Of a stretch of 64,000 nt of DNA, positions 8,965 through 56,874 are shown in pieces (position 1 is the first letter of the stretch; each line of letters opens with the position of its first letter). Made by a program: the position numbers and the translations under genes. The DNA is taken from contig JAFGMM010000257.1 of the NCBI GenBank assembly GCA_016927535.1, positions 1,761 through 65,760 of the forward strand. Direction: 5' to 3'. Source of the stretch: Anaerolineae bacterium. Its GTDB lineage: Bacteria > Chloroflexota > Anaerolineae > Aggregatilineales > JAFGMM01. The notes beneath the pieces are model-generated. The model worked only from the letters and a program-made list of their open reading frames with translations. It had not been told where the DNA came from and did not search any database.

Positions 8965-10653
8965 TCAGTCCAACGAATCGACGATACTTTGCAACAACTC
9001 CTCGTCCATCGCCGAACCCTTCTGCAACAGGGTGGCGATCTGCCCGCTCAGCCGGTCGCGCTCGCGCGGGGTCAGTTCCTTCGCCGTCAGAACGATCACC
9101 GGGATACCGGCCAATTCCTCATCCGCCTTGATCGTCTCGATGACCTGGAAGCCGTCCACTTCGGGCATCATCAAATCGGTAATCACCAAGTCGGGCTTTA
9201 GCTCGCGCACCATCACGATGCCGGCGCGCCCGTCGGTAGCCGTGTGCACCTGGTAACCGCCGCGCGCCTGCAAGATCCGCGCGATCAGGCGGGCGGCGTC
9301 CGGCGTGTCTTCGATCACGACGATCTTGCGCACCGCCGTGTCGATGTGATCCAGCGCCGAAAGCAGGCCCTCCTCCGGCAGCGAAATCTGCCCGCCGGCC
9401 TTGCTCGCATCCACTCGGCGCTCCCACTCTTCGCCTAATACCTGCTTTTCCACCGGGAAGGTGTGGCCCGAACAATTTACTACGACGATATCGTCGGGTT
9501 TAAAAACGCCCTTACGCACCATCTTAAATAGCCCGGCGAAGGTGACCGCCGTCGCCGGCTCCACCGAAAGCCCCTCCATACGTGCCAGCACGCGCGTCGC
9601 CGCGAAGGCTTCCTCGTCGGTGGCGGCCTGGAAGTACCCGCCGTGATCCTGGATGCAATCCCAGAGCAGTTGGTAGGCGCGTCCGGGGTCGCCGGTGGCA
9701 AGCGTGGCGATGAGCGTCTGAGGGACGGTGACCGGCGTCGCAACCGACTGTCCCGCCTCGAAGGCGTGAACCATCGGTGCACACCCCGCCGACTGCACAC
9801 AGGCCAGCGCCGGCATTTTGCTCACCATCCCCATATTCATTAACTCCTTAAACCCTTTCGACACGCCAATCGGCCCCATCCCGCCGCTGACGCCCTGCAC
9901 GTACCAATCAGGCGTACACCAGGGCGTGTCACAGCCCCGGTTCGCCAAGCCATACTCGTCTGCCAGTTGCTCGGCGATTTCGTAGGCCAGCGTGGTCATA
10001 CTCTCCACGGCGGCGATGCTCTTAATGCCCCGGTCAACATAGATATCCCGGCTCTTGGCAAAGCGCGCCGCGACCGCCTTCGTCTCGTCGTAGGTGCCGG
10101 TGACCTTAATCACCTCGGTGCCGTAAAGCGCCATCTCGCGCATCTTATCGCCCGGCACCAGGCTGGTGACAAAAGCCCACAGTTTGATCCCGGCCCGTGC
10201 ACAGTAGGCCGAATACGCAATCGCTACGTTGCCGGTGGAGGCTACCACCATCTCCTCGATGCCAAGCTCTTTCAGCACCGAGACCGCCACCGACGCCTGC
10301 CGGTCTTTAAACGAGCCGGTCGGCCCCTGCCGCTCGTCTTTAATATACAGGTTCTTGAGGCCAAGCATCATGCCCAGCCGCCGCGCGTGCAGCAGGGGCG
10401 TGCCGCCTTCGCCCATCGTAACAATGTTGTTATGGTCGTGCAGCGGTAGAAGCTCGCGGTAGCGCCACAAGCCGAATGGACGCGACCGGATCATCTCCTG
10501 CCAGTTCGATTCCTTGAGCGCCTGCCAGTCGTACTCGACTTCTATGATGGTTTCGCCGCATTCCGGGCACTTGACTAAAGGACGTATATAAGGCTCCCGA
10601 TAACCGCAATAGGTACATCGTAAATGAACGTTTCCGCGTGGCTGTATACTCAT
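8965..10653 (-). CDS. Threonine-synthase-like PLP enzyme with an N-terminal zinc ribbon and a C-terminal receiver (REC) domain
   Basis: CxxC..CxxC ribbon (CTYCGY...CPECG). The PLP-lysine motif is GSFKDRQAS. The fold-type II PLP body is present. The last 121 aa (8968-9330) form an intact REC: IED, VITDLMMP, VLTA, LQKG. Confidence 0.85.
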   Translation of the reverse strand: MSIQPRGNVHLRCTYCGYREPYIRPLVKCPECGETIIEVEYDWQALKESNWQEMIRSRPFGLWRYRELLPLHDHNNIVTMGEGGTPLLHARRLGMMLGLKNLYIKDERQGPTGSFKDRQASVAVSVLKELGIEEMVVASTGNVAIAYSAYCARAGIKLWAFVTSLVPGDKMREMALYGTEVIKVTGTYDETKAVAARFAKSRDIYVDRGIKSIAAVESMTTLAYEIAEQLADEYGLANRGCDTPWCTPDWYVQGVSGGMGPIGVSKGFKELMNMGMVSKMPALACVQSAGCAPMVHAFEAGQSVATPVTVPQTLIATLATGDPGRAYQLLWDCIQDHGGYFQAATDEEAFAATRVLARMEGLSVEPATAVTFAGLFKMVRKGVFKPDDIVVVNCSGHTFPVEKQVLGEEWERRVDASKAGGQISLPEEGLLSALDHIDTAVRKIVVIEDTPDAARLIARILQARGGYQVHTATDGRAGIVMVRELKPDLVITDLMMPEVDGFQVIETIKADEELAGIPVIVLTAKELTPRERDRLSGQIATLLQKGSAMDEELLQSIVDSLD

Positions 10654-10668
10654 TAAAATTCTCCAAGA

Positions 10669-13600
10669 TTATGCATCCTTTTTCCTAAGCAAATCTAATT
10701 CTACACGCCTAACGGCCTGAACCAAATCTTGCTCGGAGAAAGGTTTTGTCAGAACCCGCGTTGCGCCCATCGCTAAGCCACGCTCCGCCTCATCCAGGAT
10801 TGTACACACCATAACCGGGGTATCCTGGGTTTCGCTGTCCTCCTTCAACTGCCTCAGCACATCCCAGCCGTCCATCTCCGAGCCGGGGATGACCACATCC
10901 AGCAGCACGACAATCGGTTTGAACTGCTTGACCATGTTCACCAGGTTGTCCGGGCTGGTGGTGCCCAACACCTCGTAGCCACCGCCCAGCAGATAGCGCC
11001 GGTATAGGTTGATCGTATCCCACTCGTCGTCCAGCGCGATGACCACCTTTGGCCGATCCGACCGCGCCAGTCTTGCCGCTACACTCGGCAGCGCCGGCTC
11101 GGTGTCGATTCCTACTTCCACGTCCTCTGCCGCCGCCGCGCGCCGCTCGACCTCACTCACCGCCTTGATCAACTGCTCTTCCAGGAACGGCTTCACCAGG
11201 AACCCGGCTGCGCCCGACGCCTGCGCGCGCTTTTCCTCATCTAGGATCGTGCATATAATCACCGGGATATCCTGAGTCGCCGGCTCGGCCTTCAACTGTT
11301 CCAGAATGGCCCAACCGTCGATATCGTGCGCCGGGAAAACCAGATCCAGCAGCACGATCACCGGCTTGAACTGCTTCACCATGTTGAGCATATTGTCCGG
11401 GCTGGCCGTGCCCAGCACCTCGTAGCCCGCGCCGAGCAAATAGCGCCGGTACAGGTTAATCACTTCCCATTCGTCGTCCAGCGCGATAATCATCTTAGGC
11501 GGCGCCGGCTCGACCGGCTCGACCGCCTCCACCGCTTCGACGCTTTCCGCGCGCTCGACCGTCTCGACCGGCGCGGCGTCGCCGGCAACGCTCAACTCAT
11601 CCAGTTGCCCGTGGTCGATCTGCCGTACCACGGTTACCAGGTCCGCTTCGGCGAACGGCTTTATCAAATGCGCCGCCGCGCCCGCCTCCAGCGTGCGCTC
11701 GGTATCCTTCGTGACGCTGCACATCACCACCGGGATATCCTGGGTCTCCGGGTCGGCCTTCAACTGCTCCAAAACATCCACGCCGTCAAGCTCCGAGTCC
11801 GGGATCACGACATCCAGCAGCACCACGAACGGCCTGAACTGTTTGACCATGTTAATCAGGTTTTCCGGGCTGGTGGTGCCTAGCACCTCGTAGCCGCCGC
11901 CCACCAGGTAACGCCGGTACAGGTTGATCGTGTCCCATTGATCGTCGAGCACCATCACAACCTTCGGCTGCAGCGGCGCTTCCGGCGGCACATCCTCCGG
12001 CTCCGGCGCGGGCGCTTCGTCCTGAACTTCGACGACGGGTACCGCGATCGCGCGCCCTTCAAGCGCCTGCACCGCTTGCACCAACTCGTCCTCCAGGAAC
12101 GGCTTCACCAGATACTTGGCCGCGCCCATCTCATACCCGCGCTCCGGCTCGTCTACGATGGTGCATACGATCACCGGAACGCCGGCAGTTCTGGGGTCGG
12201 CTTTCAACTCGCGCAGCACGTCCCAACCATTGATATCCGACTCCGGCAGCACCACGTCGAGCAGCACGACCGACGGCTTGAAATCGAGCACCATCTGCTT
12301 GAGGCTTTCGGGATTGGTGGTGCCCAGCACCTCGTAGCCGCCGCCGACCAGGTAGCGCCGGTACATGTTGATGACGCCCCATTCGTCATCCAGCGCCAGC
12401 ACCACCTTAGGCTCCAGCTTGATCTCGCCCGATTCGCGCGGCTTCCTGTCAAAGGAAATAGCGATGAGGCCGCTCAAGCGCGAGGATTCCGGCTCACCCT
12501 CCTTGAAATCGTCAAAGGAAATCGCCGCCGGACCCTCAGCAGGCTCTTCCTTGCCCGCTCGCTCGCCCCTCCGACCTTCATCTTCTTCATCGCCGAAAGA
12601 AATCGCTATCGGTCCCTTGACCTCGGTCGATCCAGGCTCCTCCTCGTCGAAGGATATCGTGATCGGGCCTTTAACCTCAGCCTCTTTGGCCGGCGCATCC
12701 TCCGCTTCTCCCTCCACTTCCGGCGGCTCCAAGGAGATGCTGAAGATAAAGGTCGAGCCTTTGCCCAACTCGCTTTCGACCCAAATCTTGCCGCCCTGCA
12801 ACTCGACCAGGGCCTTCGTGATGGGCAGGCCCAGGCCGGTGCCGCCGTACTTGCGCGTGGTGGTATTGTCCACCTGCCGGAACGCCTCGAACAGCTTGTA
12901 ATGATCCTCCGGCGCAATGCCGATACCGGTGTCGGTCACAGCCACATGAATGATCTTGCGCCCGCTGATCTCGGTCTTCAAGTCAGCCGCAACCGTCACG
13001 CTGCCGATTTCGGTGAACTTGATTGCGTTGTTCACCAGATTGATCAGAATCTGGCGGGTACGGAACTCATCGCCCCACACCTGCGGCAGCCCTTCTCCCA
13101 CCTGCTCCACCAACTCAACCGGCTTCTCGCTCACCTGCACCGAAACCGTCGATATCACCTCGTGAATCACTGACGCGATGTCGAAGTACTCGAAGCTCAA
13201 TTCCATCTGCCCGGCTTCGATCTTGCTTTGATCCAAGATGTCGTTAATCAGCGTCAGAAGATGCTGGCCGCTGTTGTGGATAGTTTGCAAGTCGGTCCGC
13301 TGCAAGTTGTTCAGCGGTCCATCAATCTCCTTGAGCAACACACGGCTGAAGCCGATGATCGAGTTCAGCGGCGTGCGCAGCTCGTGGCTGGTGCTCGCCA
13401 GGAACTCGCTCTTGAGCCGGTTCAACTCGCCCAGGCGGGCGTTGGCCTCCTGAACATCTCGGAGCAGTTGAATGTTTTGAATGACCGCGTGCAGCGAGTT
13501 GCTCATCGTCTGGAGCAGCCGCAAAACCTGGTCGTCGTAGCCGCCGCGCCGCAAGCTCTGAATCTGGAGCACGCCGCTAAGCTCGCGTCCGGCGGCAATC

Positions 13601-16600
13601 GGGATCACCAGCGCCGACCGGGTTTCCTCGGCAAAATCGTTAAAACGCCGGTCGGACGCCATATCCTCGATGATGAGCGGCTCGACGTGCCGCGCCACCC
13701 AGCCCACCGAAGTCCCCCGGTACGGCACCAACTGCCCTACGTCTGTGTCGTGAGTACAAACCATCCGGCGCAGCGCCTTTTCATTTGGCACCGGGACCAG
13801 GATGTCGATCTCATAAGCCTGCAAGAAGTCGTCGATGACCTCGACCACGCCGCCCAGCGCCGCCTCCAGATCCTCGGCGCCGCCGGATGTCGCCGCCTGC
13901 GTGACCCGGAACAGGAAGCCCATCTCCTCGGCGCGGCGCGTCGAGTAGGTGATGAGACGCTGGTTATCCAACACCACGGCGGCCTGTTCGGCGACGGTGC
14001 GGAAGTTCTGTACCTCGCGCTCCTCAAATTTATGCACCCGGTCGATTGTTCCGACCAGCAGCCAGCCGAAAACCCGCCCGCCGGTCGCAATGGGTACCAT
14101 AGCCGCCGAGCGCACATCCATCTGCCGGAAGATCGCGCGCATCGCATCATCGATGCCGGCGTCAGGATCGTCGAGGTCATCCGCCACCAGCGGCGCACTG
14201 CTCGCCGCGCCGGAGGGGACCGGCATGGACGTAAAGCGGTTGCCCAGGTGGGCCGCCTCGTCGCCGGCCCGGTCCCACATCGCGCGCACCTCGATTACCC
14301 ACTCCGACGGGTGCGCATCCAGGTTCTCGATAATCAACACCAGCGCGCGGTCGAACGCCGGCGCCTGGGCATAATCCAGCATGGCCGCAAGCACACTATC
14401 GGTGTCCGTCGCCGAAGCCAGCGCCGAACTGGTGCGATAGAGTGCAGCGGTCTCCTCCAACGACGCCTCGGTCTGGCGGAGCAGTTGGATGTTGTCCAGC
14501 GCGACCGACGCCTGGTCAGCCACGGTGGTCACCAGGCGCTTATCGCGCTCGGAGAACTCATCCAGCGGCGCGACAGAAGCAAAGGTCAGTATCCCCGTTA
14601 CCTGGCCGCGCGCGCTCAGCCGCGCCGAGACCCCGCCCCGGTTGCCGGAGGCGCGCAGATTCGCGCGGATGCGGCTGGGCATCTCAATGTCCAGGTTCTC
14701 GATATCGACGTAGAGGATGAGATCATCCAGGCTAGAAGCCAACAACATCACACGCATTTCGTCGTCAAACGCAATCCCTTCGAACCGGCGCACCGACTGC
14801 GTTTCGCCTCCCAACCGGAGGCTATAGACATCCATCAGCGCCGGCGTACCGTCTGCGCTGCGCCGGGTGAAGACGTGCAGACCGACATAACCCATCTGCA
14901 TGAAGGTCGCAAGCTCGGCGGCGCCCTCCAAGATAGTCTCGATGGTCTGCGCATTGCCGATGATCCGGCTGGTCCGGTACAGCAGGTCGGTCTCGGCCAG
15001 GCTGATCTGCGTCTGCTCGAACAGGCGCGCCGCCTCAAGCGCCTGCGCCACCTGGTCCGACACTTCGCGGATCAGCGCCAAGTCCTCGGACGAGAGCGGG
15101 TTGAGCGGGTCGTTATACACACCCAGCGCGCCGATCACTTCGCCGCCGCGCAGCGACAGCGGCGCTACCGTCGCGCCGTTTCCGCCCTCGACGCCGGGCG
15201 CTACCAACGCGTTCTGCCGGGTCGCCTGCTCCATCTCCGGCAGCCAGAGACCCTCGGCGGATTTCAATTCGCGGTGTTCGAACAGGTAGCCGGGCGGCAG
15301 AGTCTTCACCTCACGATAGCTCTGCCAGCCTTCCTGGCTCATCGCGCGGTAAAGCGCATCCAGTTCGCGCAGGCGCTCCTCCATCTCGGCCTCGGCGTCC
15401 TTCTGCGCCGTGATATCGGTGACGATATCGGCCAGGTAAAGCGGATTATTATCCTCGTCCCGGATCAAGAAGAAATTCTCGATTGTCGGGATGATCCTGC
15501 CGGTTCGAGAGACCAGGGCCAACTCGCCCGTCCACTGCCCTTCTGCCATCACCGTCGGCAGAATCTCGGTCGGGAGGCGCCGGCGGAGCGCATCCGGGTA
15601 ATAGTCCCCAAGCGGCTTGTTGAGCATCGCATCCGGGCTGGTCTCGTCCAGCAGCCCGGAGAGCGTGGGATTCGCATAAATAATGATCCCTTCCAGCGTC
15701 GCCATGCCCAGACCTTGCCCCGACGCATCGGCCAAGCGGCGGAACAGCCGGAACGACTCCTCGGCCTGCTTGCGCGCCGTGATATCGGTAATGGCATTCG
15801 CCAGGTACTGCGGCTGGCCGCGCTCGTCGTAGATCGTAAAGATGTTCTGGATCGTATCCAGCACGCTGCCGTCGAGCGCCACACACGGCAGTTCGCCCGA
15901 CCACTGGCCCTGCTCCCGGACGATGGTCATGATCTCACCCCGGACCGACCGCGCGACGTCTTCGGGGAAGAAGCTATAGACCTTCTCGCCTATCAACCTG
16001 TCTGCGCTCTCGGCGCCGAGGAAGCGCGTCAGAGTCGGGTTGACGTAGATGAAACTGCCTTCCAGATCGGCCATACCCAGGCCCTGGCCGGAGGCTTCCG
16101 CAAACTGGCGGAAGATGTTCGCCTCTTCCAGCAACCGCATCGCATTGATGGCGATGGCAATCTGGCCGCACAACCCTTCCAGCAAAACCCAATCTTCCTG
16201 GGTCAGCGCGCCGGCGACGTTGCTCTGCACATCCAGGATGCCCAGCACCTCGCCGCGCCACTTAATCGGCACCGCCAGCTCGCCGCGCGTCTCCGGCAGG
16301 TCAGGGTTCGGTATCCAGTAGGGGTCTTCACGGACGTCGCTCGCCAGCACCGGGCCGCCGGTCGCCAGCGAAGTCCCCACAATGCCGGTTCCTATTTCTA
16401 CTCTATGATGCCGCGCCAACATACGCGCACCCGGCTCGCCGTAGCCGGTCATCAGCACCATCGCGTTTTGCGCCGGTTCGTAGCGGAAGATTTGCGCATG
16501 GTAGTAATTGAAGCGCTCCTTGACCAGAGTCACGACGCGCTCGTAAAGCGTCGCGATATCGGTAGCCGCCGCGATTTCCTGCGCCACCTCGGTGCTGATG

Positions 16601-19026: not shown

Positions 19027-19027
19027 T

Positions 19028-26203: not shown

Positions 26204-26209
26204 AAGTCT

Positions 26210-28612: not shown

Positions 28613-28615
28613 CCT

Positions 28616-30973: not shown

Positions 30974-30974
30974 C

Positions 30975-33794: not shown

Positions 33795-33808
33795 ACTGTC
33801 TCCCGCGT

Positions 33809-38082: not shown

Positions 38083-38095
38083 ACGTCACTCACCC

Positions 38096-39100: not shown

Positions 39101-39164
39101 CCGGCTTCTCCCTCTCAAAACAAAACCTTGAACCCTCGCCGACGCCCTCATGACTCCTCGCCTA

Positions 39165-40844: not shown

Positions 40845-40846
40845 CC

Positions 40847-42526: not shown

Positions 42527-44226
42527 CCCTCACCTCCCTCGTCCGGCGGCGGTTCGGGCAGCCACCCTTCCGGTAGACCAATCCGCACCGAGACGCGCGG
42601 CGCGCGCAACACCTGGCTCAGGCCCTTCGCAGCCGTCACCAGCGCCGAATCCACGTCGTTGTGCGCCGATTGGAGGCGCGCACCGATGGCGTTGACCATC
42701 ACTTCGCGCGCAGCGATGCGCTGCACTTCGGCAAACAGGCGTGTGCTGTCCGCCGCCAAGCCCAGGCGTTCCCCCACCTGGCGCGCCATCTCACGCTGCT
42801 GCGCCGAGGGAAGCGAATCCAGCTCAAACTCCATCGCGCCGACGACTTGCCCCGCGACCCGGATCGGCACCCCTACCACCGGGCCGGCCGGCCCTTCCAC
42901 CGCCACCACATCGCCCTGCGTCACCGCCTGCTCAAGCGCCGGCGTCCACTGCTTATCGCGCCAAACATTCTGGTCTTCCAGATTCAGCACCAAGCTCTCG
43001 TCCATATCCAGATCGCGCAGATACGCCTCCCATGCCTGGCCCGTCCGCAGCGCTTCGGCCTGCTGAAGACGCGCCAGCCGCATCTTCAACTCGCCGATCT
43101 CGCGCGCGCCGGCATCCAGGCGTTCCTGCATCAACCGGAACTGCCGGGCCCGCTCGGCAGCCGCCGTGACCAGGTTCGCCATCGTCTGGAGACCTTCAAC
43201 CAGGTCCAGCGTCAGATCGTCGGGCCGGCTGCTTTGCAACTCCATCACTCCGAACAGCGCCTCGCCCACCATCATCGGCAGCACCAAGTAAGATCGCGTA
43301 CCGGCCAGGAGTTGGTCGTCCGGCAAGTCCTCACCCTGCGACATATCGCTCACCAGCGCAAACTGCCCGGAGAGCGCCACCCGCCCGATTTTGTGCGCTT
43401 GGTCCGCCGGCCAAGTCTTCGCGCTCTGCACGGCGTCTATATCCACCGCGTCGCTGCTGGCGACCAGAGTCAGCGTCTCTGCCTCGCGGTCCAGCGAATA
43501 GATGCGAATCAACTCAATTTGGCCGTAAGTATCCATGACGACATCGAATGCCCGGTCGAAAAGCTGCCTGACATCGGGAGCTGCCGCCAAACGTTCGCCC
43601 AGCCGGTATAACAGGCCGGCGCTTGCCAGACGGCCCTCGGCGCGCTCGGTCACTTGGTTCAGATTCCCGATCAACGCCCCCGCCGTCCCCAAAATCAGGA
43701 AACAAAAAATTGGGAGCATAAGCGCGACGACGGCCATGCGCGGCCCGGCCTCGGTCAGGGCCGGGGTTAAAAGGCCGGCGCTTTCGGCCCAGATCGCAAA
43801 GAGCGTATAAAACACGACGGCGAGCGTGTAGAACAGCGCGCCCTGCCATTCGGCGATGATGACCACAAACAGCACCGTGATCGGGATGATAGCACCCAGG
43901 GCACTGGTCACCCCGTAGGGCCACAGGGTAACCGCCGTGGTGATAAAGCCGCCGAACAAGAAGACATTAACCGCCAGGCCAAGCCTTCCCTGGCGCAGCA
44001 GAAGCGCCGACAAGCCGCTCACCGCCACCAACCACACCATGCCCAGCACCCCGGCAGCCGGCACCGGCGCCCAGTTTGTTACATATACAACCAGGTCGAT
44101 CCCCAGCAAGGCAATCCCGACGACCGGCAACACCACCAACAGCACGCCGAAGCGCCGGCCCCGTTCCTGGTCCAGGCGCGACGGGTACTGGTCAAGATCA
44201 AACCATCGGGTCAGGCGTGTATTCAT
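42523..44226 (-). CDS. 6TM-GAF membrane sensor without output domain (567 aa), paralog 1 of 3
   Basis: Multi-TM N-terminus, a more divergent GAF, a short GAF-like module and the C-terminal module. The start overlaps the upstream stop by 4 nt. Confidence 0.85.
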   Translation of the reverse strand: MNTRLTRWFDLDQYPSRLDQERGRRFGVLLVVLPVVGIALLGIDLVVYVTNWAPVPAAGVLGMVWLVAVSGLSALLLRQGRLGLAVNVFLFGGFITTAVTLWPYGVTSALGAIIPITVLFVVIIAEWQGALFYTLAVVFYTLFAIWAESAGLLTPALTEAGPRMAVVALMLPIFCFLILGTAGALIGNLNQVTERAEGRLASAGLLYRLGERLAAAPDVRQLFDRAFDVVMDTYGQIELIRIYSLDREAETLTLVASSDAVDIDAVQSAKTWPADQAHKIGRVALSGQFALVSDMSQGEDLPDDQLLAGTRSYLVLPMMVGEALFGVMELQSSRPDDLTLDLVEGLQTMANLVTAAAERARQFRLMQERLDAGAREIGELKMRLARLQQAEALRTGQAWEAYLRDLDMDESLVLNLEDQNVWRDKQWTPALEQAVTQGDVVAVEGPAGPVVGVPIRVAGQVVGAMEFELDSLPSAQQREMARQVGERLGLAADSTRLFAEVQRIAAREVMVNAIGARLQSAHNDVDSALVTAAKGLSQVLRAPRVSVRIGLPEGWLPEPPPDEGGEG

Positions 44227-47200
44227 GACTGTTCTTCGCCCCCATTCGCGCTGCGCTGCCCAAGCCGCATCCGCACTCGCGCCCGCTTCGCGCCCAGCGC
44301 CACGCCTAGCTCGCGCAGCGTCGTTTCCAGCATCGTCTCGACATCGGTGCGCTCGGTCAATTGAGTCGAGACCCGGCTCACGGTCCGCTCGCGCTCGGCG
44401 CGGTCGCGCACCTCGGTAAAGAGCCGCGCGTTCTCCATCGCCACCGCCACCTGCCGGGCCGCCTGCGCCATCAGCGCCCGGTCGTCCTCGGAAAAGGCGC
44501 GCTCCTGCCGGCTGGCGACGTTAATCGTACCCAGCGTTTGTCCGCCGGCGATCAACGGGACCACCAGCGACGCACGAAGGCCCTGCCGGGCAAGCGCCTG
44601 TTCATCCAGGCGCACCGAATCGGTTACATCGTCGGTGATGGACGGCTCGCCGCTGATGAAGACCTGGCCTACCACACTGCCCGCGACCGGCACCGGCTGG
44701 CCGGCGTCCAACTCGATACGCGATCCTTCCAGCGCGACGATGCGCAGGGTTTGGCCGTCGGGGTTGGGCAGGCACAGACTCGCCCGGTCCACATCCAGCA
44801 GCGCGGTCACCTCCCGACTCACCACCTGGATAATCTCCCGCATCTCCAGCGATGCGCTGAGCAGCTGTGACAACCGGTTCAACAGCGCCAAACGGCTGGT
44901 CTGGCGCTGAGTCTGGGCGAGGAGTTCCTGGTTTTCCAGCCGCGTCACAATCTGCCCGGCGACAGTCTGGCCGATGCGCGTCTCGCGCGCATCGAAGGCA
45001 TACGGGGTCGTGTGCGAGATGATTAACATGCCCTGATCCTCACGGCGCGCCACCATCGGAAAGGCAGCAAACGCCGCGATCCCCTGGCGGCGGAGTGCAT
45101 CAGCATCCCGCGCCAGGATCAACGGGTGATCAGCAACATCACTCACCGACACCGGCTGCCGGTCGTCGATCACCGGGCGCATGACCGCGAGAACCGGCAT
45201 CACCCGGTCGATAGCGTCGATATCGTGCGAAGACAACCGGGCCAGCACACGCATCCCGGTGATCGCGCCCACCGGGTCGCGCTCGTAGCGCGAGATCAGC
45301 GCACCGTCCAGGTGCGGGAATGCGTGCGCCAGCACGGCGGTAGCCAGATCGACCGGGGAGACTGCGCGCAGCACCGCCTGCCCGGTATCGAACAGCGCCC
45401 GGCTTTCTTGCAGCGCGGCCTGGGTTTGGTCAAACAACTGTTGGTTTTGATACGTCACCGCCATCTGGCCGGCCAGCGTCGAAAGCGCGCGCACCTGGGT
45501 TGGCGAGAAGACATGCGGACGGCTCACGCCCAGCATCACAAAGCCGAGCACTCGCCCGCCAATCTCCATCGGCAAGTTCACCATCGCGCGGATGCCGCGC
45601 TCGACAAAGAAGGCCACGCCGTCCAGGTCGAAGAGATCGGAGGCCTCGACGTTCTCCACCACGACCGGCTCGCCCTTCAACACTTCCTGGTAAAGCGGCG
45701 CCAGCGGATCGCCGTATAGCGGCTGCTTCAAATCGAGCCGCTTCGCCTCATCGCCGCTCACCGCCACCGGCGTATGGGCCGACTCGATGCTCCCGGTATC
45801 GGGATCATAGTCAAACAACACGATCATCGAGGCATGCACCAAGCCGGCGGTGAAGTGGCATATCGCCAGCAGCATCTCGGCCAAGTCGGTCGCGTCGGTA
45901 ATGCGGCGGGCCGCCTCATACTGGCGAAGCGCTTCCTCAAGCGCGCTCCAGGTTTGCTCGACCAGGCGTTGATTACGGATCACCACCGCCGCCTGCCCGG
46001 ATAGCGACTGGTAAGCGCGGTGTTCTTCCGGCGCCATAGCGCGCGGCTCGCAGTACATCACCACCAGCACGCCGATGCGCTCGGCGCCGATGGTGATGGG
46101 GAACACCGCAAACGACCGGGCGTCGAAGCCGGCGCGGATGGCCTCGGCGATGCGCGAGGCCATCCGCGCCGCCGGCGGCGGGTTATCCAGGTCTTTGACG
46201 ACCAGCGCCGGCGCTCCGTTGACGCCGAACAAGCGGCCCAAGTAAACCAGATAGGGATGGTCGCGCCCGAATGCTTCACCGGGCCGGTCGTTCTCGCCGG
46301 CGGTGCGATCCCAGTAATCCGCGATCTCGATGTATTCGGTGCCGTCGGCGTCCGCCTGCCACAGCCCCAACGCCATCCGGTCAGCGTCGTGCTGCTCGCC
46401 ATACTCGACCAGCCCGTCGAACATCGCCTTGATATCGCTGCCACCGGTGATCTTCCGGCTCGCTTCATAGAGCGTCTCGGCCTCCATAAGAGCCTGCTGG
46501 GTCGTTTCGATCAAACGCTCGCGCTCGACGGCGGCCTCTTTCTGCGCCGTGATGTCGCGGCCCATCCCCACCAACCCTATGATGTTACCCATTTGGTCGC
46601 GGAGCGGAATCTTAGAAGTCGAAAACCAGATCTCCGTGCCGGTTGTCATGTTGAACGTTCGCTCTTCGATGTCGAGCAGCGCCTCGCCGTCCTCGATCAC
46701 ACGCCGCTCGTCCTCGCGGTACTGCCGGCTCAGGTCTTCGGGGAAGAAATCGAAGTCAGTCTTGCCCAGCGCCGCCTCGAAGTCATCGACCCCCAGCGAA
46801 CGCATCGTGGGCAGGTTGTAGAGCAGGAAACGGCCTTCGCAGTCCTTGACATAAACATTGTCCGGGAGGTTATCGATCATCGTGCGCAGCAGGTTGCGCT
46901 CGTCGGCCAGCGCCGTCTGCGCTTCCTGGATGTCCTCGATCACGGCCTGCATCCGCGCCAGGAGCCGCCGGTTGTCCACCGCGACCGAAACCTGGTCGCG
47001 CAGCGACGCATAGATGCGCTCGTCGCGCCCTTCGAACGCCTGCGGCGCGGTCCAGTGCAGATGCAGCAGCCCGACCCAACGCCGCCCCGCCGTCAGCGGC
47101 AAGACGATCACCGCGTGCTGGCCCAGTTCAGCCAAGCGCTGCCGGGTCGCCGCATCAATACGTTCATCTTGCTGCGCATCGCCGAACAAGTACGGCTGGT

Positions 47201-50200
47201 CGGGATTCTCCCGCCACACATCGGCCAGCGGCAAATCCGCCGCATCGTAGCACGCGCCAGGCTCGATAAACGCCGGCCCGGTGTCCTCGGCAAGCCAGGT
47301 CGCCACCACCCACGCCTCTTCGAGCCGGCCTTCGGCGTCCGTATCCAGGTACAACAGCGAAGCCGAAGCCGCGCCCCGGTCGATGGCATAGCGCGCCGTC
47401 GCCATCAGCAGCCCGTGCTCATCCTCGGCGCGGCCCATCGCCTGGCCCGCCGCGTACAGCGCCTCGGCCTCGGCCAGGCTCTCGCGCACCTGTTCCAGCC
47501 GCCGGATGCTCGTGATCGCAACCGCCGCTTGCCCGACCAAGCTCATCAGCCGGCGCAGATCTATCTCGGCAAACGCCGTCGGGCGGGCATAGATCGCATT
47601 GATGTAGCCGATCCACTGCCCGGTCACGACCATCGGCAAGAACACCGTGGCCGCTGCGCCGAAGCGATCCCGGTAGAGCGCGCGCGTCCGTTCGTCCAGC
47701 CGGGGATCATTCGCCACGTCCGAGATAACCAGCGGCTCGTCCGGCTTCAGCAGGCGCGCAGCCGGAAAGGCGCGCAGCGGATACCGATCCTGGGCAGCCC
47801 CGGCAGCCATCCGCGACCAACGCGCCACCGGGGTACTCCACTCCGGCACGTCATCGTCTATCCAGGGGCGATTATAGAGATTGACACTGATATTCAAATC
47901 GGCGCGCCCCAGGATCGTGTAGGTCTGCAACAGTTCGATCACTTCGTCGTAAGTATCGACCGCGTTAAGCTGCGCGATGGCCTGGTAAAGCGCCTCGGTT
48001 TCGTCCAGCGCATCCTGAGTCTGCTCGATCAGGTTGCGATTCTCCAGCACTATCGCCGCCTGGTTGACCAAGCCGGTTACAGCGTCCACGTCCTCGTTCG
48101 AGAAGCGACGCGGGCCGCGCGTCTCCTCCACAAAAAGCACGCCCTCCGACTTACTGCCGGCGACCAGCGGCAGGAGCACGAAAGCCGTCACGCCCTGCGC
48201 GCGAACCGTCGCATAAGCCGGGTCGTCCTGGGGCACCTCCGCCTGGATGATCGGCTTCTGCGTGCTCAGGACGCGCCGGGCGAAGGGCGTCTGCTCCAAC
48301 GGCGTGCGCGAATCCGCCAGCCGCTCGGCGAACGCGCCACAGCCGGCCCGCCAGACCAGCGCATCGTCCACCTGATCATGGGCAAAGACATGCGCCTCCG
48401 GCACATCGAGCAGCCGGGCAGCATACTCCGCCGCCGCCTGGAAGATCGCGCCCGGGTCAACCGCCCGGTTGAGCGCGACGCCCGCCTCAAGCTGGGTGTT
48501 CCGGCGGCGCGCGCGCTGCTGAATTTCCTCGAACAGGCGGGCATTCTCGACCGCATTGGCGACCTGGTTGCCCAGGGTTTGCAACACGGTGATGTCTTCG
48601 GCAGAGAACGCCGCCTCACGGGTGCTCTGGATGCTAAGTGCGCCAGTCACCTGCCCGCGCGAGACCAGCGGCAGCGCCAGCTCGGAGCGGGTGTCGGGTA
48701 GCAGCGGATTATCAAAACGGTGCGCTTCGGCGCCCACATCCAGCGCGACCTGTGCCTCGGCGAAAGCAATCGCCTGGCCGATCATCGACGCGCCGCCGAT
48801 CTCCAACCGATGCCCACGCGCCAGCATCGCCCGGCCGGCCTCACCCGTCCCGGCGCGCAGCACTGCCCAGGTCCACGGCTCGCCGGTCCAGCGCCCGTCG
48901 AGATCGACCAGGAACAACCCGACGTAATACAAATCGAAGCGCTCACAGATCAGATCCACCACGCGCTGTTGGAGATCGTCCAGGTCCAAGATGGAACTGG
49001 CCGCCCCTGACACTTCCGAAGCGGTCTGCAACTGGGCATTGCGCTGCCCAATCGTCGCCAGCAGCCTCTCGCGCTCGGTCACCTCGCGGACAAAGCCCAA
49101 CACCCCCCACACCTGCCCGTCGGCGTCGCGCAGCGGCAGCTTAATCGTATCGAAGATGCGCATCTCGCCGTCGAGGAGCGTCGGGTCGGCAGGATTCGCG
49201 ATTCTACGTCCCTCCAGCACCGCCGCATCATCGGCGCGATAGCCCCGGATACCCTGCTCCGGGTCGCCGAAAACCTGTTCTTTCGAAAAGCCCAACTCCA
49301 GGTCATCCTTACCGACGACATCCTCCGGCGCCAAATGGAGCGCGCCGGCATAGCCCCGGTTCGCCAACACGTAGCGGAAGTCACGATCTTTAATGAAAAT
49401 CCAGTCCGGCGTCGCGTCGACCACCGACCGGAACAACGCCAAATTGCGCTGGGCTTCGGCGGCCAGGCGCTCGCGCTCCTGGGCGGCCTGCTTCTGCGCG
49501 GTCACATCCCGGGAAACGCCCACGATACCGACCACATTGCCCTCGCCGTCCAGGAGCGGCACCTTTGTTACCGAAGCCCAGGTCACCTTGCCGGAGGGAT
49601 AGCGGGCATCCACTTCTTTATCGATCACCGGTTTCAGCGACTCGATGATGTTGCGCTCATCGGCGTAATATTGCTCGGCCTGCTCGACGGGGAAGATGTC
49701 GAAGTCGGTTTTGCCCAGCGCGTCTTCTTGAGCCGCCATACCCATCGCTGCCAGGTGCGCGGCGTTGTTAATAATGAAGCGGCTTTCTGTATCTTTAGCA
49801 TAAATGTGGTCGGGCAGCGTGTCGATCACCGTGCGCAGCAGATTGCGCTCCTCAACGAAAGCGTGTTCGGCCTCGCGCACCTCCGCCAGCGCGGCCTGGG
49901 TCTGTTCAAACAGACGCGCATTCTCGATCACATTGGCGAGCTGGTTTGCCAGGGTCTGCAAGATGTTGACATCCTCCTCGGAGAAAGCCGCCTCCTGCGT
50001 GCTCTGGATGGTCAACGCGCCCACCCTCTCGCCGCGCGTCGCCAACGGCAGCGCCATCTCAGAGCGCGTCTCCGGCAGCAGCGGGTTGTCGAAGCGCCGC
50101 GCCTGCGCGCCCACGTCCAGCGCAATCTGCGCCTTCGCCCTGGCAATGCACTCGCCGATCATCGACGCGCCGCCAATCTCCAGCTTGTGCCCGGCGTTCA

Positions 50201-52148
50201 ACATCTTGCGCCCGGCCTCGCCGGTCCCGGCGCGCAGCACCGCCCAGCGGCCCGGCTCGCCCGTCCACTCGCCCGCCCGGTCGATCAGGAACAGGCCGAC
50301 ATAATATAGATTGAAGCGCTCGCGGACCAAGTTGACCACGCGCTGCTGAAGGAAATCCAGGTCCAGGATCTCGCTGGCGGCAGCGGAGACCTCGGAGGCA
50401 GTCCGCAGTTGGGCGTTGCGTTTTTGCAGCGCCTGGCTTAGCTCGCGCAGCCGCTGCTCCGATTGGCGGCGCTCGGTAATATCCTCGTAGGTGCCCAGCA
50501 CACCGATGACGTGACCATCGGCGTCGTGCAGCGGGATTTTGCTCTCGCTGAGCCAGCGCCCGGCCTGATCCACCCGCTCGATGCGGAACCGGGGCGCATC
50601 CGACTCCATCACCGCGCGGTCGCCGGCCTCGTGCTGGTCGGCGTGCTCGGCCCAGGGCATGGCGTGCGCGGTCTTGCCGATCACCCGATCCGGCGACTCG
50701 AACCCGGCATCCCGCGCAAAACGGCGGTTGGCGCCCAGATAAACCAGATTGCGGTCCTTCCAATAGACCGCCTGGGGGATGTTATCCATCACCAAGCGCA
50801 GCAGTTGCTCCGACTGCCGGCGCTGGGTGATATCGCGCGCGATCATCAAGACGGCCTCCTGGCCGTTGTAGTCGATCACCTGGCTGTTCACCTCAACCGG
50901 GATCGTGCTGCCATCGCGCCGTACATGCGCCGTTTCGAAGACATGGCGCCCGCGCTCAAACACCTGCGCGATGCTTTCCTCGGCATGCGCCGCGAACTCC
51001 GGCACGCTGATGTCTTGCAGCGCAAGCTGGAACATTTCGGCGCGCGAGTAGCCCAGCCGCTCACACGCGACCAAGTTCACCTCCAGGAACTTGCCCGCCC
51101 GGTCGTAAATCAAAATCGCGTCGGCGGCGCTGTCGAAGAGCGTTTGATAGCGCGCCTCCGAGCGGCGCAGCGCCTCCTCGACACGCCGCTGGTTGGTAAT
51201 ATCCACCACCAGCCCGCGATAGCCGATCACAACGCCGTCGGCGTCGCGCTCCACGCGCGTATAATCGATCACCCAGCGCACCTCGCCCGCCGCCGTAAGA
51301 ATGCGATACTGCTGCTCGTAAATATCCAGCCCGGCTTCGATGTGCTGCTGCGCGCCCTGCTCGACACGCTCGCGGTCGTCGGGGTGGATAATATCGCCGT
51401 AATCAATCAACCCGTCGTAAAAAGCTTCGGGGCAGTAGCCGAACTGCTCGACATTGCCGGAGACATATTCGACCGCCCACCGGTCATCCTCACCGTGCGG
51501 CCAGATGAACGCCACCGCCGGGCTGTGCTGAATCACCTCATCCAGGTTGCGCAGCGCCTCCTGGGTCTGCTTCTGCTCGGTAATATCGACGCCAAAGCCT
51601 ACCAGTCCGACAATCTCACCCGCGTCGTTACGCACGGGCACCTTCGTCGTCGAAATCCAGCTCGTCTCACCGGTTGTCTGGTCGGTGACCTGTTCCTCGC
51701 GGTTCAACAACGGCCGGCCGGTCTGAAAAATCGCCTGCTCGTCGGTGTAGTAGCCGTCGGCCAGTTCCGGCGGGAAGAAATCGAAGTCACACCGACCGAG
51801 CGCATCCTCCGGCCCGTCCACACCCAGCGCGCGCAGGTGAGAAGCGTTGCTGAGGGTAAACCGGCTTTCGGTATCTTTGGCATAAATTAAGATGGGAAGA
51901 TTATCGACAAGGGTGCGCAGCAGATAGTGTTCCCTGGCGGGCACCGGCCTGACATCGCCTCTAAGACGCGCCACAGCCGCATCGAACGCGCCGGCCAACT
52001 TTTCGCCCAACGGCGAACGCTCCTCACCATCACCGCCGGCGCCCAGGTCCAGCCGCCGGTCAAGATCACCTGCCCCGATGTCCGCCAGCGCATCCACCAC
52101 CTCGGTCAGCAAACGTTCCAACTCAGCACGTGTCGGGCGTTTCGTCAT
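44223..52148 (-). CDS. Giant cytoplasmic multi-PAS/multi-GAF protein (2641 aa; about 7 PAS, 9 GAF) without output domain
   Basis: No TM segment. The N-terminus has a HAMP-like motif (GAGDLDRRL...LAGAFDAAVARL). PAS units recur (DNLPILIYAKDTESRF, DTLPDHIYAKDTESRF, DNLPDNVYVKDCEGRF). GAF units include NPLLPETRSEMALPL. The protein ends in the family C-terminal module. Confidence 0.9.
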   Translation of the reverse strand: MTKRPTRAELERLLTEVVDALADIGAGDLDRRLDLGAGGDGEERSPLGEKLAGAFDAAVARLRGDVRPVPAREHYLLRTLVDNLPILIYAKDTESRFTLSNASHLRALGVDGPEDALGRCDFDFFPPELADGYYTDEQAIFQTGRPLLNREEQVTDQTTGETSWISTTKVPVRNDAGEIVGLVGFGVDITEQKQTQEALRNLDEVIQHSPAVAFIWPHGEDDRWAVEYVSGNVEQFGYCPEAFYDGLIDYGDIIHPDDRERVEQGAQQHIEAGLDIYEQQYRILTAAGEVRWVIDYTRVERDADGVVIGYRGLVVDITNQRRVEEALRRSEARYQTLFDSAADAILIYDRAGKFLEVNLVACERLGYSRAEMFQLALQDISVPEFAAHAEESIAQVFERGRHVFETAHVRRDGSTIPVEVNSQVIDYNGQEAVLMIARDITQRRQSEQLLRLVMDNIPQAVYWKDRNLVYLGANRRFARDAGFESPDRVIGKTAHAMPWAEHADQHEAGDRAVMESDAPRFRIERVDQAGRWLSESKIPLHDADGHVIGVLGTYEDITERRQSEQRLRELSQALQKRNAQLRTASEVSAAASEILDLDFLQQRVVNLVRERFNLYYVGLFLIDRAGEWTGEPGRWAVLRAGTGEAGRKMLNAGHKLEIGGASMIGECIARAKAQIALDVGAQARRFDNPLLPETRSEMALPLATRGERVGALTIQSTQEAAFSEEDVNILQTLANQLANVIENARLFEQTQAALAEVREAEHAFVEERNLLRTVIDTLPDHIYAKDTESRFIINNAAHLAAMGMAAQEDALGKTDFDIFPVEQAEQYYADERNIIESLKPVIDKEVDARYPSGKVTWASVTKVPLLDGEGNVVGIVGVSRDVTAQKQAAQERERLAAEAQRNLALFRSVVDATPDWIFIKDRDFRYVLANRGYAGALHLAPEDVVGKDDLELGFSKEQVFGDPEQGIRGYRADDAAVLEGRRIANPADPTLLDGEMRIFDTIKLPLRDADGQVWGVLGFVREVTERERLLATIGQRNAQLQTASEVSGAASSILDLDDLQQRVVDLICERFDLYYVGLFLVDLDGRWTGEPWTWAVLRAGTGEAGRAMLARGHRLEIGGASMIGQAIAFAEAQVALDVGAEAHRFDNPLLPDTRSELALPLVSRGQVTGALSIQSTREAAFSAEDITVLQTLGNQVANAVENARLFEEIQQRARRRNTQLEAGVALNRAVDPGAIFQAAAEYAARLLDVPEAHVFAHDQVDDALVWRAGCGAFAERLADSRTPLEQTPFARRVLSTQKPIIQAEVPQDDPAYATVRAQGVTAFVLLPLVAGSKSEGVLFVEETRGPRRFSNEDVDAVTGLVNQAAIVLENRNLIEQTQDALDETEALYQAIAQLNAVDTYDEVIELLQTYTILGRADLNISVNLYNRPWIDDDVPEWSTPVARWSRMAAGAAQDRYPLRAFPAARLLKPDEPLVISDVANDPRLDERTRALYRDRFGAAATVFLPMVVTGQWIGYINAIYARPTAFAEIDLRRLMSLVGQAAVAITSIRRLEQVRESLAEAEALYAAGQAMGRAEDEHGLLMATARYAIDRGAASASLLYLDTDAEGRLEEAWVVATWLAEDTGPAFIEPGACYDAADLPLADVWRENPDQPYLFGDAQQDERIDAATRQRLAELGQHAVIVLPLTAGRRWVGLLHLHWTAPQAFEGRDERIYASLRDQVSVAVDNRRLLARMQAVIEDIQEAQTALADERNLLRTMIDNLPDNVYVKDCEGRFLLYNLPTMRSLGVDDFEAALGKTDFDFFPEDLSRQYREDERRVIEDGEALLDIEERTFNMTTGTEIWFSTSKIPLRDQMGNIIGLVGMGRDITAQKEAAVERERLIETTQQALMEAETLYEASRKITGGSDIKAMFDGLVEYGEQHDADRMALGLWQADADGTEYIEIADYWDRTAGENDRPGEAFGRDHPYLVYLGRLFGVNGAPALVVKDLDNPPPAARMASRIAEAIRAGFDARSFAVFPITIGAERIGVLVVMYCEPRAMAPEEHRAYQSLSGQAAVVIRNQRLVEQTWSALEEALRQYEAARRITDATDLAEMLLAICHFTAGLVHASMIVLFDYDPDTGSIESAHTPVAVSGDEAKRLDLKQPLYGDPLAPLYQEVLKGEPVVVENVEASDLFDLDGVAFFVERGIRAMVNLPMEIGGRVLGFVMLGVSRPHVFSPTQVRALSTLAGQMAVTYQNQQLFDQTQAALQESRALFDTGQAVLRAVSPVDLATAVLAHAFPHLDGALISRYERDPVGAITGMRVLARLSSHDIDAIDRVMPVLAVMRPVIDDRQPVSVSDVADHPLILARDADALRRQGIAAFAAFPMVARREDQGMLIISHTTPYAFDARETRIGQTVAGQIVTRLENQELLAQTQRQTSRLALLNRLSQLLSASLEMREIIQVVSREVTALLDVDRASLCLPNPDGQTLRIVALEGSRIELDAGQPVPVAGSVVGQVFISGEPSITDDVTDSVRLDEQALARQGLRASLVVPLIAGGQTLGTINVASRQERAFSEDDRALMAQAARQVAVAMENARLFTEVRDRAERERTVSRVSTQLTERTDVETMLETTLRELGVALGAKRARVRMRLGQRSANGGEEQS

Positions 52149-52204
52149 ACCATCTCTACTCCACTACTCAGCCACGGCCGGCGCCGCAGCCCTTCTTTGC
52201 AGTA

Positions 52205-52234
52205 GGGGCGGGTCGCCTTCGTCGCACCCGCCCC
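52205..52234. repeat. Hairpin of the GGGCRGGT..ACCYGCCCCTAC type in the RR-sensor spacer
   Basis: GGGGCGGGT (52205-52213) pairs with ACCCGCCCC (52226-52234) around a 12-nt loop. It lies 8 nt downstream of the RR2 stop. On the minus strand it ends in CCCCTAC, as the 8838 copy does. Confidence 0.55.
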
Positions 52235-52242
52235 CTTGTGCT

Positions 52243-52680
52243 CTACTTCCACTCCCAGACCGCGTCCCCCGCCAGGATGCGACGGATCTGTTCTGGAAAG
52301 CGATCTGGGTCGAGCGGCTTGCCGAGAAACCCGTCAAAGCCGGCTTTCGTGGCTTTTCGCATTTGCTCCTCGCTGGCCTCGGCGGTCACGGCGACCACGA
52401 GGGTATCCTTGAGGCGTGGGCTGGCGCGCACCTTCTGCAAAGCCTGGTAGCCGTCTTCATAGGGCAGCCGGATGTCCATCAAGATCAGGTCAATCCGGGG
52501 CAGCGTATCGGCAAACTGCACCACCTGCCACCCAGACGTCTTCCACTCACAGCGCTGCACCCCCATAAAAGCCAGCATACGCGCGATCAGCACAAAGTTT
52601 GGCACATTGTCCTCGACCACCAGCACATGAGCTTCGCTGGGATCGACTGGCTCGCGCTTAAGTCGGGTCTCCTCAGCCAT
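52243..52680 (-). CDS. Single-domain CheY-like response regulator
   Basis: VVED, LILMDIRLP, AVTA and GKP receiver signature. There is no output domain. The start overlaps the upstream stop (TAATG). Confidence 0.9.
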   Translation of the reverse strand: MAEETRLKREPVDPSEAHVLVVEDNVPNFVLIARMLAFMGVQRCEWKTSGWQVVQFADTLPRIDLILMDIRLPYEDGYQALQKVRASPRLKDTLVVAVTAEASEEQMRKATKAGFDGFLGKPLDPDRFPEQIRRILAGDAVWEWK

Positions 52681-53057
52681 TAGCCTCTACTCCTCAAGTG
52701 TTTTTTAATTTCGCGAGGTAGTACATCGATATCAATCGGCTTACCTATGAAGCCATTGCACCCGGCAGCCCGCGCCTTTTCAATATCTTCTTTCATTACA
52801 TTCGCCGTCAGAGCAATAATCGGCACATCTTTAAGCGAATCAATCGCGCGCAGGTGCCGGGTCGCCGTCAGGCCGTCCATGGAGGGCAGTTGGAGGTCCA
52901 TCAAAATCAGGTCGGGTTTTTCGCGCATCGCCAGATCGATCCCGATCATGGCATCTTCCGCCTCAACGACTTCGATATCCTCTGCCAGCAACACTCTCTG
53001 CACAAGCATACGATTGGCGGGATTATCCTCTATATATAGAATACGTGGTGAACTCAT
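52680..53057 (-). CDS. Single-domain CheY-like response regulator (first gene of the array)
   Basis: YIEDN, LILMDLQLP, ALTA and GKP receiver signature. Length is 125 aa. Confidence 0.9.
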   Translation of the reverse strand: MSSPRILYIEDNPANRMLVQRVLLAEDIEVVEAEDAMIGIDLAMREKPDLILMDLQLPSMDGLTATRHLRAIDSLKDVPIIALTANVMKEDIEKARAAGCNGFIGKPIDIDVLPREIKKHLRSRG

Positions 53058-56814: not shown

Positions 56815-56874
56815 ATCTCGGTTTCCTGTCTTCTTTTTCCGTCATTCACAACACGACTAAAGCGGGAAAGAGGC

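Follow-up and report, generated by a model that had tools for sequence, protein, structure and literature searches.

The subject of this analysis is a 64,000-nt stretch of DNA from an Anaerolineae bacterium, hereafter the window, and within it a block of 15 consecutive co-directional genes on the minus strand, running from 53057 down to 8965. Together with two genes further downstream, this block appears from its gene content and order to be one conserved Anaerolineae signalling operon. Ten of its products are sensor proteins lacking any output domain, and all ten end in the same C-terminal module of ~46 aa, which we have named the GAF-stub. The stub and the histidine kinase core are mutually exclusive: they are alternative endings of similar sensor rods. 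The genes are numbered g1 to g17 from high to low coordinates, all of them on the minus strand.

The 15 genes were delimited from the list of open reading frames (ORFs) and by Pfam scans. They overlap by 1–4 nt or are separated by 1–15 nt, except for a gap of 94 nt between g2 and g3 (52149-52242) and one of 64 nt between g6 and g7 (39101-39164). Three starts were corrected, to ATG 39100 for g7, GTG 30973 for g11 and ATG 19026 for g14; the latter two are preceded by AGGAGG, and the start of g7 is called identically in an independent assembly. The g6-g10 stretch is likewise identical in an independent SRA assembly. After these corrections, 213 nt out of 44,093 nt are non-coding (~99.5% coding), and the packing is operon-like, with Shine-Dalgarno sequences at the starts. 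An earlier note on this DNA had described just such a single-strand array of 15 genes, with spacers and overlaps of these lengths and ~99% coding, and that description is borne out.

Domains were counted using Pfam scans together with hidden Markov models (HMMs) iterated on the window's own proteins. The products of g1-g15 hold 43 GAF domains (34 full, ~9 short), 13 PAS domains (seven in g3 and six in g14), six HAMP domains, seven receivers and one HisKA/HATPase core, and g16 adds one receiver and one kinase core. The earlier tally agrees with this throughout, including the GAF total, and only its split into ~33 full and 10 short GAF domains needed correction. Its ten pure-input proteins (g3-g6 and g8-g13) are also confirmed in number, while their summed length is 10,664 aa and not ~10,900 aa. 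No Hpt, GGDEF/EAL, cyclase, MCP-signal or DNA-binding domain was found in any product with Pfam or NCBIfam. AlphaFold models of g6 and g9 contain no extra globular domain beyond the sensor, GAF and stub parts, and every segment of the ten proteins could be assigned to a domain or region, so that the absence of output domains claimed in the note withstands the HMM and structure searches.

The ten sensors belong to one family, in which nine are membrane proteins with differing sensing parts (multiple transmembrane (TM) helices, a dCache domain or another periplasmic domain). On the cytoplasmic side they are all built similarly, with GAF and short GAF, or of a longer GAF chain, with or without a preceding HAMP domain, and then the stub and a short disordered acidic tail. 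The soluble member g3 (44223..52148, 2641 aa) has seven PAS and nine GAF domains ahead of its stub. A PAS-PAS-GAF block has been duplicated inside it (residues ~323-1210; window ~48500-51200); the copies share 48% identity across 414 aligned residues, and their GAF domains, at 74.5% identity, resemble each other much more than any other GAF pair in the array does. Three consecutive genes, g4 (42523..44226, 567 aa), g5 (40847..42526, 559 aa) and g6 (39165..40844, 559 aa), form positions 1, 2 and 3 of a triplet in which 5-6 TM helices are followed by GAF, short GAF and stub. The dCache-HAMP-GAF-short GAF-stub arrangement is found in g8 (35941..38082, 713 aa), g9 (33809..35941, 710 aa) and g12 (26210..28612, 800 aa). 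The same plan is extended in g10 (30975..33794, 939 aa), where six TM helices and a dCache domain precede TM-HAMP-GAF-short GAF-stub, and in g13 (19028..26203, 2391 aa), with dCache, HAMP, 11 GAF domains and stub; g11 (28616..30973, 785 aa from the corrected GTG) has two TM helices, HAMP, three GAF domains and stub. Pfam places extracytoplasmic dCache_1 domains in g8, g9, g10, g12 and g13. Hydropathy analysis gives 5-6 TM helices in g4-g6, ~7 in g10 and a two-TM receptor topology in g8, g9, g11, g12 and g13, with g3, g14, g15 and g16 soluble. Between the six HAMP receptors the cytoplasmic module is 34-49% identical pairwise, whereas the sensor part is mostly unalignable. The block had been described as an array of PAS/GAF/HAMP sensors, which holds for most of it and fails for g7 (38096..39100, 334 aa). 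This accessory gene encodes a periplasmic ABC_sub_bind solute-binding protein (PF04392, 119 bits) with a signal-peptide-like N-terminus; a TrpX-like model scores 106 bits, below its cut-off, and among related loci a counterpart was seen only in L001 and L002, which are the nearest relatives.

The shared C-terminal module follows a constant course. The last GAF helix (...ENARLFE...) continues into A-x-R-E-R-x-V-x-x-V-S-x-R-L and a short loop, and a second helix, L-x-x-A-x-x-E-L-x-x-A-L, then leads through x-R-x-x-V-R-L-G into a Gly/acid-rich tail; R-E and L are invariant in the alignment of the stubs (A1). An HMM of the module scores 58-71 bits exactly once in each of the ten proteins, always at the C-terminus (in g3 61.5 bits, residues 2584-2629), and under 5 bits at all other places in the 17 proteins, internal GAF starts included. 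Since the HMM was built from those ten sequences, high scores are to be expected, and it is the low background that is informative. The stubs are encoded on the minus strand at 44256-44411 (g3), 42568-42726 (g4), 40868-41023 (g5), 39207-39362 (g6), 35965-36123 (g8), 33827-33985 (g9), 31014-31169 (g10), 28655-28813 (g11), 26273-26431 (g12) and 19115-19270 (g13).

Pfam holds no model that matches this module. Comparison by hhalign with the window's internal GAF-GAF junctions and GAF starts gave a match of 97.6% probability (E 3.6e-12), as against 3% for the DHp domains of related kinases. The top PDB profile match is to the opening helix and strand of a GAF domain in the dual-sensor kinase 6OAP (residues 139-181, E 9e-10), followed by other GAF domains of the phytochrome/cyanobacteriochrome class. 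On the strength of the junction and 6OAP matches, the stub appears to be a GAF domain cut off after its linker helix, α1 and β1. The AlphaFold model of g6 (predicted local distance difference test, pLDDT, 89.8) comprises a TM bundle, a GAF domain, a 66-residue helix, a small five-strand GAF-like module, the stub as a helix-loop-helix, and a disordered tail; that of g9 (pLDDT 80.6) has the same cytoplasmic plan. In both, GAF is followed by a helix of ~55-65 residues, the five-strand module, a helix of ~45 residues, a loop, a 16-residue helix and coil. A Foldseek search with the g6 model against the PDB returned GAF folds only.

Several other descriptions of the stub were tried and rejected. A degenerate DHp, which would make the sensors pseudo-kinases, is contradicted by the hhalign figures and by PDB matches that are GAF N-termini. 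Circular permutation, in which the stub would supply the missing α1 and β1 of the preceding short GAF, fails as a general rule because g3 has nine full GAF domains, no short GAF and yet a stub, because a full GAF precedes the stub in g11 and g13, and because the short module has its own first strands in the AlphaFold models. That last, predicted feature also leaves without support a daisy chain in which each stub would complete the short GAF of the next protein, with the kinase as the end of the chain. Nor does the acidic tail hold a conserved terminal peptide of the kind represented by NWETF in MCPs: the tails of the ten window proteins and of 163 homologs are disordered, of low complexity and without a fixed end, with a median length of 15 aa and an enrichment in Gly, Glu, Asp, Asn and Pro. 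The stub itself is the best candidate for the contact surface that the earlier note had postulated between the receptors and the kinase.

Proteins of this kind are widespread. Against 1.84 billion cluster representatives the stub profile finds 8,075 proteins at E <= 0.001, each standing for a cluster at 50% identity, and 792 at E <= 1e-10. Single matches are nearly always C-terminal, and the proteins matched more than once are multi-GAF proteins hit at internal GAF starts. Among the 120 best homologs of g6, mostly unnamed or annotated 'GAF domain-containing protein' and originating from metagenome-assembled genomes (MAGs) of Anaerolineae and other Chloroflexota, 117 carry the stub exactly once, in 116 cases no more than 40 residues from the end; the other three are either histidine kinases or partial sequences. 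In a collection of 269 proteins, drawn from these homologs and from the profile matches, 200 end in the stub and none of these has a kinase core or receiver, while a kinase core is present in 14 of the 69 that lack a terminal stub. Pfam analysis of 65 diverse stub proteins found input-type domains only (GAF in 65, HAMP in 20, dCache in 10 and PAS in four, besides MASE11, 4HB_MCP, XylR_N/V4R and sCache), which makes the missing output a property of the whole family. Each of the ten window proteins has one ~46-aa stub at its extreme C-terminus behind a GAF domain, with the A-x-R-E motif and neither kinase core nor REC. Neither the family nor its exclusion from kinase cores appears to have been described in Pfam, NCBIfam or the searchable literature.

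The second line of evidence is the gene neighbourhood. When one genome per GTDB species was scanned, at least 599 matches came up, and synteny was read from the best 76 loci (74 for some of the counts), whose ORFs were scored with the local HMMs. These loci are almost all from Chloroflexota (Anaerolineae, Aggregatilineales, Phototrophicales and Ardenticatenia). The neighbourhood is the same in relatives at 60% and 46% identity. The shared order, nearly always on a single strand, is REC, REC, a multi-GAF-stub gene, three TM-GAF2-stub genes, at least one HAMP-GAF2-stub gene, and a large multi-GAF kinase with two REC domains. Two or more stub genes are present in 68 of the 76 loci; in 54 of 74 the last stub gene is followed directly by the kinase, most of the others running off the contig; and the pair of REC genes stands ahead of the first stub gene in 40 of 74. 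The three TM-GAF genes are positional orthologs, the best cross-genome match lying at the same position in 87, 98 and 80% of cases (36 loci), and they seem from this to be an ancient triplication. The window holds an expanded version of the typical locus, with six HAMP-class receptors where one or two are usual, four kinase REC domains where two are usual, the added solute-binding protein, and PAS repeats in place of the kinase's membrane sensor. Two loci, L012 and L071, lie on contigs labelled 'uncultured Pleurocapsa sp.' (cyanobacterial MAGs) and carry the typical Chloroflexota-type arrangement; mis-binning is the probable explanation and horizontal transfer the less likely one.

Downstream of the kinase the order is also kept. 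The gene for ThrC-REC, an enzyme-receiver fusion described below, comes directly after the kinase in all 12 related loci in which it was detected, as well as in L080 and L081, and the order kinase, ThrC-REC, REC-kinase, EamA is retained in two more distant genomes. A REC-kinase gene follows ThrC-REC in L080, L081, L070 and L074, and an EamA gene follows in L080, L081, L072 and L026. Because this order is preserved in relatives, the conserved unit is taken to include g16 (7321..8610, 429 aa, a REC-HisKA-HATPase kinase) and g17 (6044..7378, an EamA-family transporter, EamA 77.7 bits, whose start is uncertain between GTG 7378 and ATG 7336), and to end at ~6044; the boundary at 8965 given previously was too early. 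The same order in ~76 species-level Chloroflexota genomes, the best matches of at least 599, indicates that the genes behave as one unit. To that extent the 'one multi-input machine' of the earlier note is upheld, and in related genomes its homologs are clustered in fixed order and not scattered. As the note had supposed, the searchable literature yielded no description of the family, the locus or its organisation, and the fixed 11-gene core locus appears to be absent also from Pfam and NCBIfam.

The sole kinase core within the 15-gene array lies in g14 (10669..19026, 2785 aa), a soluble hybrid histidine kinase with six PAS domains, six GAF domains, HisKA, HATPase_c, four REC domains and no stub. 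Its catalytic parts are intact: HisKA scores 69.8 bits (H-box SHELRTPL; ...STSHELRTPLNSIIGF...) and is nearly identical in orthologs, and HATPase_c scores 96.4 bits. It shares with the stub proteins GAF1-type and short-GAF-type modules. The four tandem receivers (window 10669-12400, residues 2281-2853 of the long ORF) are 55-69% identical to one another and all keep D12/13, D57, T/S87 and K109; since orthologous kinases in related loci have two REC domains, this amplification is judged lineage-specific. The single-domain response regulators g1 (52680..53057, 125 aa, Response_reg 92.6 bits) and g2 (52243..52680, 145 aa, 69.7 bits, overlapping g1 by 1 nt) head the operon; g1 has the Asp57 equivalent, acidic pocket, Thr and Lys, and g2 keeps its phospho-acceptor residues. 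All eight receivers thus retain the phospho-acceptor Asp and its partner residues. A general rule of membrane receptors serving a soluble kinase was considered and discarded. It holds in the window, but TM-like segments precede the first GAF domain in 51 of 53 kinase candidates from related loci, and the four N-termini that were read have TM/periplasmic parts.

The gene after the kinase, g15 (8965..10653, 562 aa), encodes an N-terminal Zn-ribbon, a threonine-synthase-like pyridoxal phosphate (PLP) domain (PALP, 227 bits) and a C-terminal receiver (Response_reg). The PLP-binding Lys motif S-F-K-D-R is present (GPTGSFKDRQAS in translation), and the closest PDB relatives are threonine synthases. 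In NCBIfam it scores 269.9 bits with PRK08197 (cut-off 303) and 156 with TIGR00260 (cut-off 167.1), which its ortholog in L080 passes with 174.1. Not counting the window's own protein, the first 119 homologs in the list all combine PALP and REC at 62-84% identity, a far stronger conservation than that of the sensors (~30-60%). Many Anaerolineae MAGs have the fusion annotated as plain 'threonine synthase', and no description of it was found in the searchable literature; as a conserved companion of the locus it seems to be missing from Pfam and NCBIfam as well. In L080, a distant relative, the region 15154-16910, 3.5 kb downstream of ThrC-REC, contains another single-domain REC gene and a second ThrC-like PALP gene that stands alone (417 aa, scoring under the ThrC cut-offs). 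This is relevant to the question of whether ThrC-REC acts as the housekeeping threonine synthase.

The picture of an array without output consequently needs qualification: the receptors are output-less, and the system has candidate outputs in the ThrC-like-REC protein, the REC-kinase, the EamA transporter and the two single-domain response regulators, as judged from their sequences and positions. EamA-family transporters include exporters of amino acids and metabolites. That one is paired here with a ThrC-like enzyme suggests that an amino-acid-type compound is made and exported under regulation. Between g15 and g16 there is a gap of 354 nt (8611-8964), in which a GC-rich hairpin with a perfect 9-bp stem, GGGCAGGTC-TGA-GACCTGCCC, was read from the sequence at 8837..8857 on the minus strand. 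It is not followed by a T-run, and the terminator scan did not report it; it marks, possibly, the end of the main transcript. The same gap contains a promoter-like TTGCCA-17-GATACT (8652-8624), and the two features together mean that the unit may be two messages.

Tentatively, we think it quite possible that the kinase-less GAF-stub sensors modulate g14 by contact, with phosphotransfer to the receivers and a ThrC-like/EamA output. The sensors would form coiled-coil GAF rods, whose shared GAF/stub end would touch the paralogous GAF rod of g14 and thereby modulate its autophosphorylation. Phosphoryl groups would then pass from the His of g14 directly to the receivers of g1, g2, g16 and g15, this being the simplest route given that no Hpt domain, such as a multi-step phosphorelay would use, was found in any product of the window. 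What would be controlled in the end is the threonine-synthase-like PLP enzyme, and probably the EamA exporter beside it too. The contact, the phosphotransfer routes and the metabolic output are all inferences. Modulation by contact is the best supported of the readings, on four counts: sensor rods of one kind end either in the stub or in the kinase core; a receptor with HAMP and Cache modules should have a partner downstream; the neighbourhood has stayed fixed over class-level divergence; and there is a precedent in NreA/NreB (PMC12423327).

A number of points weigh against this proposal. The contact between receptors and kinase is itself something that we infer. Most related kinases seem to have TM/periplasmic sensors of their own and would need no receptors in order to perceive outside signals. 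In some loci, L073 and L079 among them, there are 7-9 stub genes but no kinase within 10 kb. In the monomer models of g6 and g9 the β1 segment of the stub is coil, unpaired, with pLDDT ~60-85. The scores of g15 lie just under the threonine-synthase cut-offs, which leaves its reaction uncertain, and the 354-nt gap with its hairpin parts g15 from g16.

Three alternatives deserve consideration. The stub proteins might be dominant-negative paralogs that form heterodimers with kinase monomers through the GAF coiled coil, titrating or silencing the kinase, and would then not relay signals as receptor dimers of their own. RetS acting on GacS offers a likeness. The module types that kinase and stub proteins have in common, their similar GAF-to-helix junctions and the mutual exclusion of stub and kinase core would all be accounted for. 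It is nevertheless improbable: nine of the ten stub proteins are membrane-anchored and g14 is soluble; a parallel full-length heterodimer needs matched registers, and the chains range from 2 to 11 GAF domains; and retention of the TM-GAF genes as three distinct orthologs suggests specific roles over titration.

A second alternative keeps the stub as a docking surface and changes its partner to g1/g2 or g16, so that the receptors would act downstream of the kinase or parallel to it; phosphorylated regulators might, for instance, be localised to the membrane or sequestered there. The two REC-only genes that head the cluster in 40 of 74 loci fit well with this, and the predicted helical hairpin of the stub would make a dimeric four-helix bundle with a geometry like that of REC-binding DHp domains. 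The homology of the stub is, however, to the start of a GAF domain (97.6%; 6OAP) and not to DHp (3%), and we give this arrangement little chance of being correct.

It is about equally doubtful that the stub proteins are autonomous ligand binders, serving as buffers, membrane organisers or scaffolds, and cluster with two-component genes through co-regulation only. Neither an output domain nor a known interaction motif was found in them (Pfam, NCBIfam; 65 relatives), and the stub genes without a nearby kinase in L073 and L079 would be readily explained, but the gene order, including a kinase next to the stub genes, has persisted across class-level divergence, and HAMP and Cache, as transmembrane signalling modules, imply a downstream receiver of the signal. 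Finally, although the stub does resemble a GAF domain cut after its first strand, the notion that these genes are decayed kinase fragments or mis-assembled repetitive GAF DNA is effectively refuted by conservation, given intact ORFs of up to 2641 aa, the independent assembly of g6-g10, orthologs in conserved order in ~76 species genomes and an R-E pair invariant in a stub found in thousands of clusters.

Upstream of the operon, a promoter-like TAGAAA-17-TATAAT (53181..53209, minus strand) lies ~125 nt before g1, which is weak evidence, such sites being no commoner than shuffled sequence would lead one to expect. Promoter and terminator scans of the window gave no signal above chance, and an Rfam scan gave no matches. 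A PIG-L family deacetylase gene (53393-54235, plus strand) is divergent from g1, as it is in the 46%-identity relative L003 (1164-2003), and may share a regulatory region with the operon. Beyond it are tandem paralogous genes for LysM + SdrD_B-like, putatively cell-surface proteins of 484 and 561 aa (55360-58652, minus strand). On the other side of the operon, a gene for an EAD8 domain fused to a calcineurin-like phosphoesterase (3140-5041, plus strand) is followed by one for EAD8 with a CHAT protease (5079-6020, plus strand), the pair lying in a patch of low GC content (0.48 against ~0.64 in the surroundings); 3140-6020 has the appearance of a conflict or defence module acquired by horizontal transfer, directly beside the signalling locus. 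Further out there are a typical MoxR-DUF58 pair, consisting of a MoxR AAA+ ATPase (841-1794, plus strand) and a DUF58 protein (1811-3028, plus strand), and a Roadblock/LC7 (MglB-like) gene (266-637, minus strand).

Input-only sensors are common in genome censuses, and how they relay their signals is mostly obscure; the present locus offers a well-defined case. It delineates a family of 8,075 clusters by one short module that never co-occurs with a kinase core, and its fixed neighbourhood names candidate partners (one kinase and two CheY-like proteins) and a candidate output, making signalling by output-less sensors directly testable. It also furnishes a new domain model for annotation pipelines, and suggests that an enzyme of an amino-acid pathway is controlled by phosphorylation in a class that is abundant in the environment but little studied.

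Each part of the system is of a familiar domain type, and g14 is a hybrid kinase of the ordinary HisKA kind. It belongs with the multi-GAF/PAS hybrid kinases, and the stub is like the GAF openings of the phytochrome and cyanobacteriochrome proteins among them (6OAP, 8W26), a resemblance confined to the N-terminal helix and strand; unlike those kinases, the ten sensors stop after the first strand of their last GAF and have no kinase core, and no conserved bilin-binding Cys is seen in the family consensus of the conserved GAF. The fusion of a receiver to an enzyme in g15 recalls response regulators with enzymatic outputs such as CheB, PleD and RpfG, from which it differs in that the enzyme is a threonine-synthase-like PLP protein and the REC domain is C-terminal. 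In function the nearest analogues are the stressosome, the chemoreceptor arrays and NreA/NreB. The stressosome (RsbR paralogs, RsbS and RsbT) is an assembly of paralogous sensors, variable in their N-terminal sensing parts and sharing a C-terminal module, that controls a single kinase through contact. The resemblance of variable sensing ends and a common C-terminal module is one of concept only: the window proteins and 65 relatives contain no STAS domain, the window encodes no RsbT-type kinase, and the common C-terminus is the GAF-stub.

The chemoreceptor arrays offer a fuller parallel. There, too, variable Cache or other sensors are joined through HAMP to a conserved cytoplasmic module that is not an enzyme and has a helical hairpin at its end, the cytoplasmic parts are conserved and the sensor parts divergent among paralogs, and one kinase works with CheY-like single-domain regulators. 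The differences are that the kinase in the window is a HisKA-type hybrid with its own PAS/GAF sensors and that the cytoplasmic module is GAF-GAF-stub; no MCP-signal domain was found in g3-g13 or 65 relatives, and no CheA, CheW, CheR or CheB in the window. That the locus encodes a GAF-based receptor array paralleling the chemoreceptor arrays, its stub tips docked on the giant kinase and switching ThrC-like-REC and EamA, strikes us as rather unlikely. Were it true, thousands of kinase-less transmembrane sensors would integrate extracellular and membrane signals, and filamentous Anaerolineae could make and export a regulated amino-acid-type compound, possibly an intercellular signal. For contact between an output-less GAF protein and a kinase, the closest comparison is with NreA, which consists of a GAF fold only, and which complexes with the sensor kinase NreB and changes its activity (PMC12423327). 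In the NreA-NreB-NreC system of Staphylococcus carnosus, as in the window, the GAF-only gene lies in the operon of the kinase; the two differ greatly in scale and architecture, since NreA is a single soluble GAF of ~150 aa and the window encodes ten large, mostly membrane-bound receptors with a stub, so that the likeness is drawn at the level of the GAF fold.

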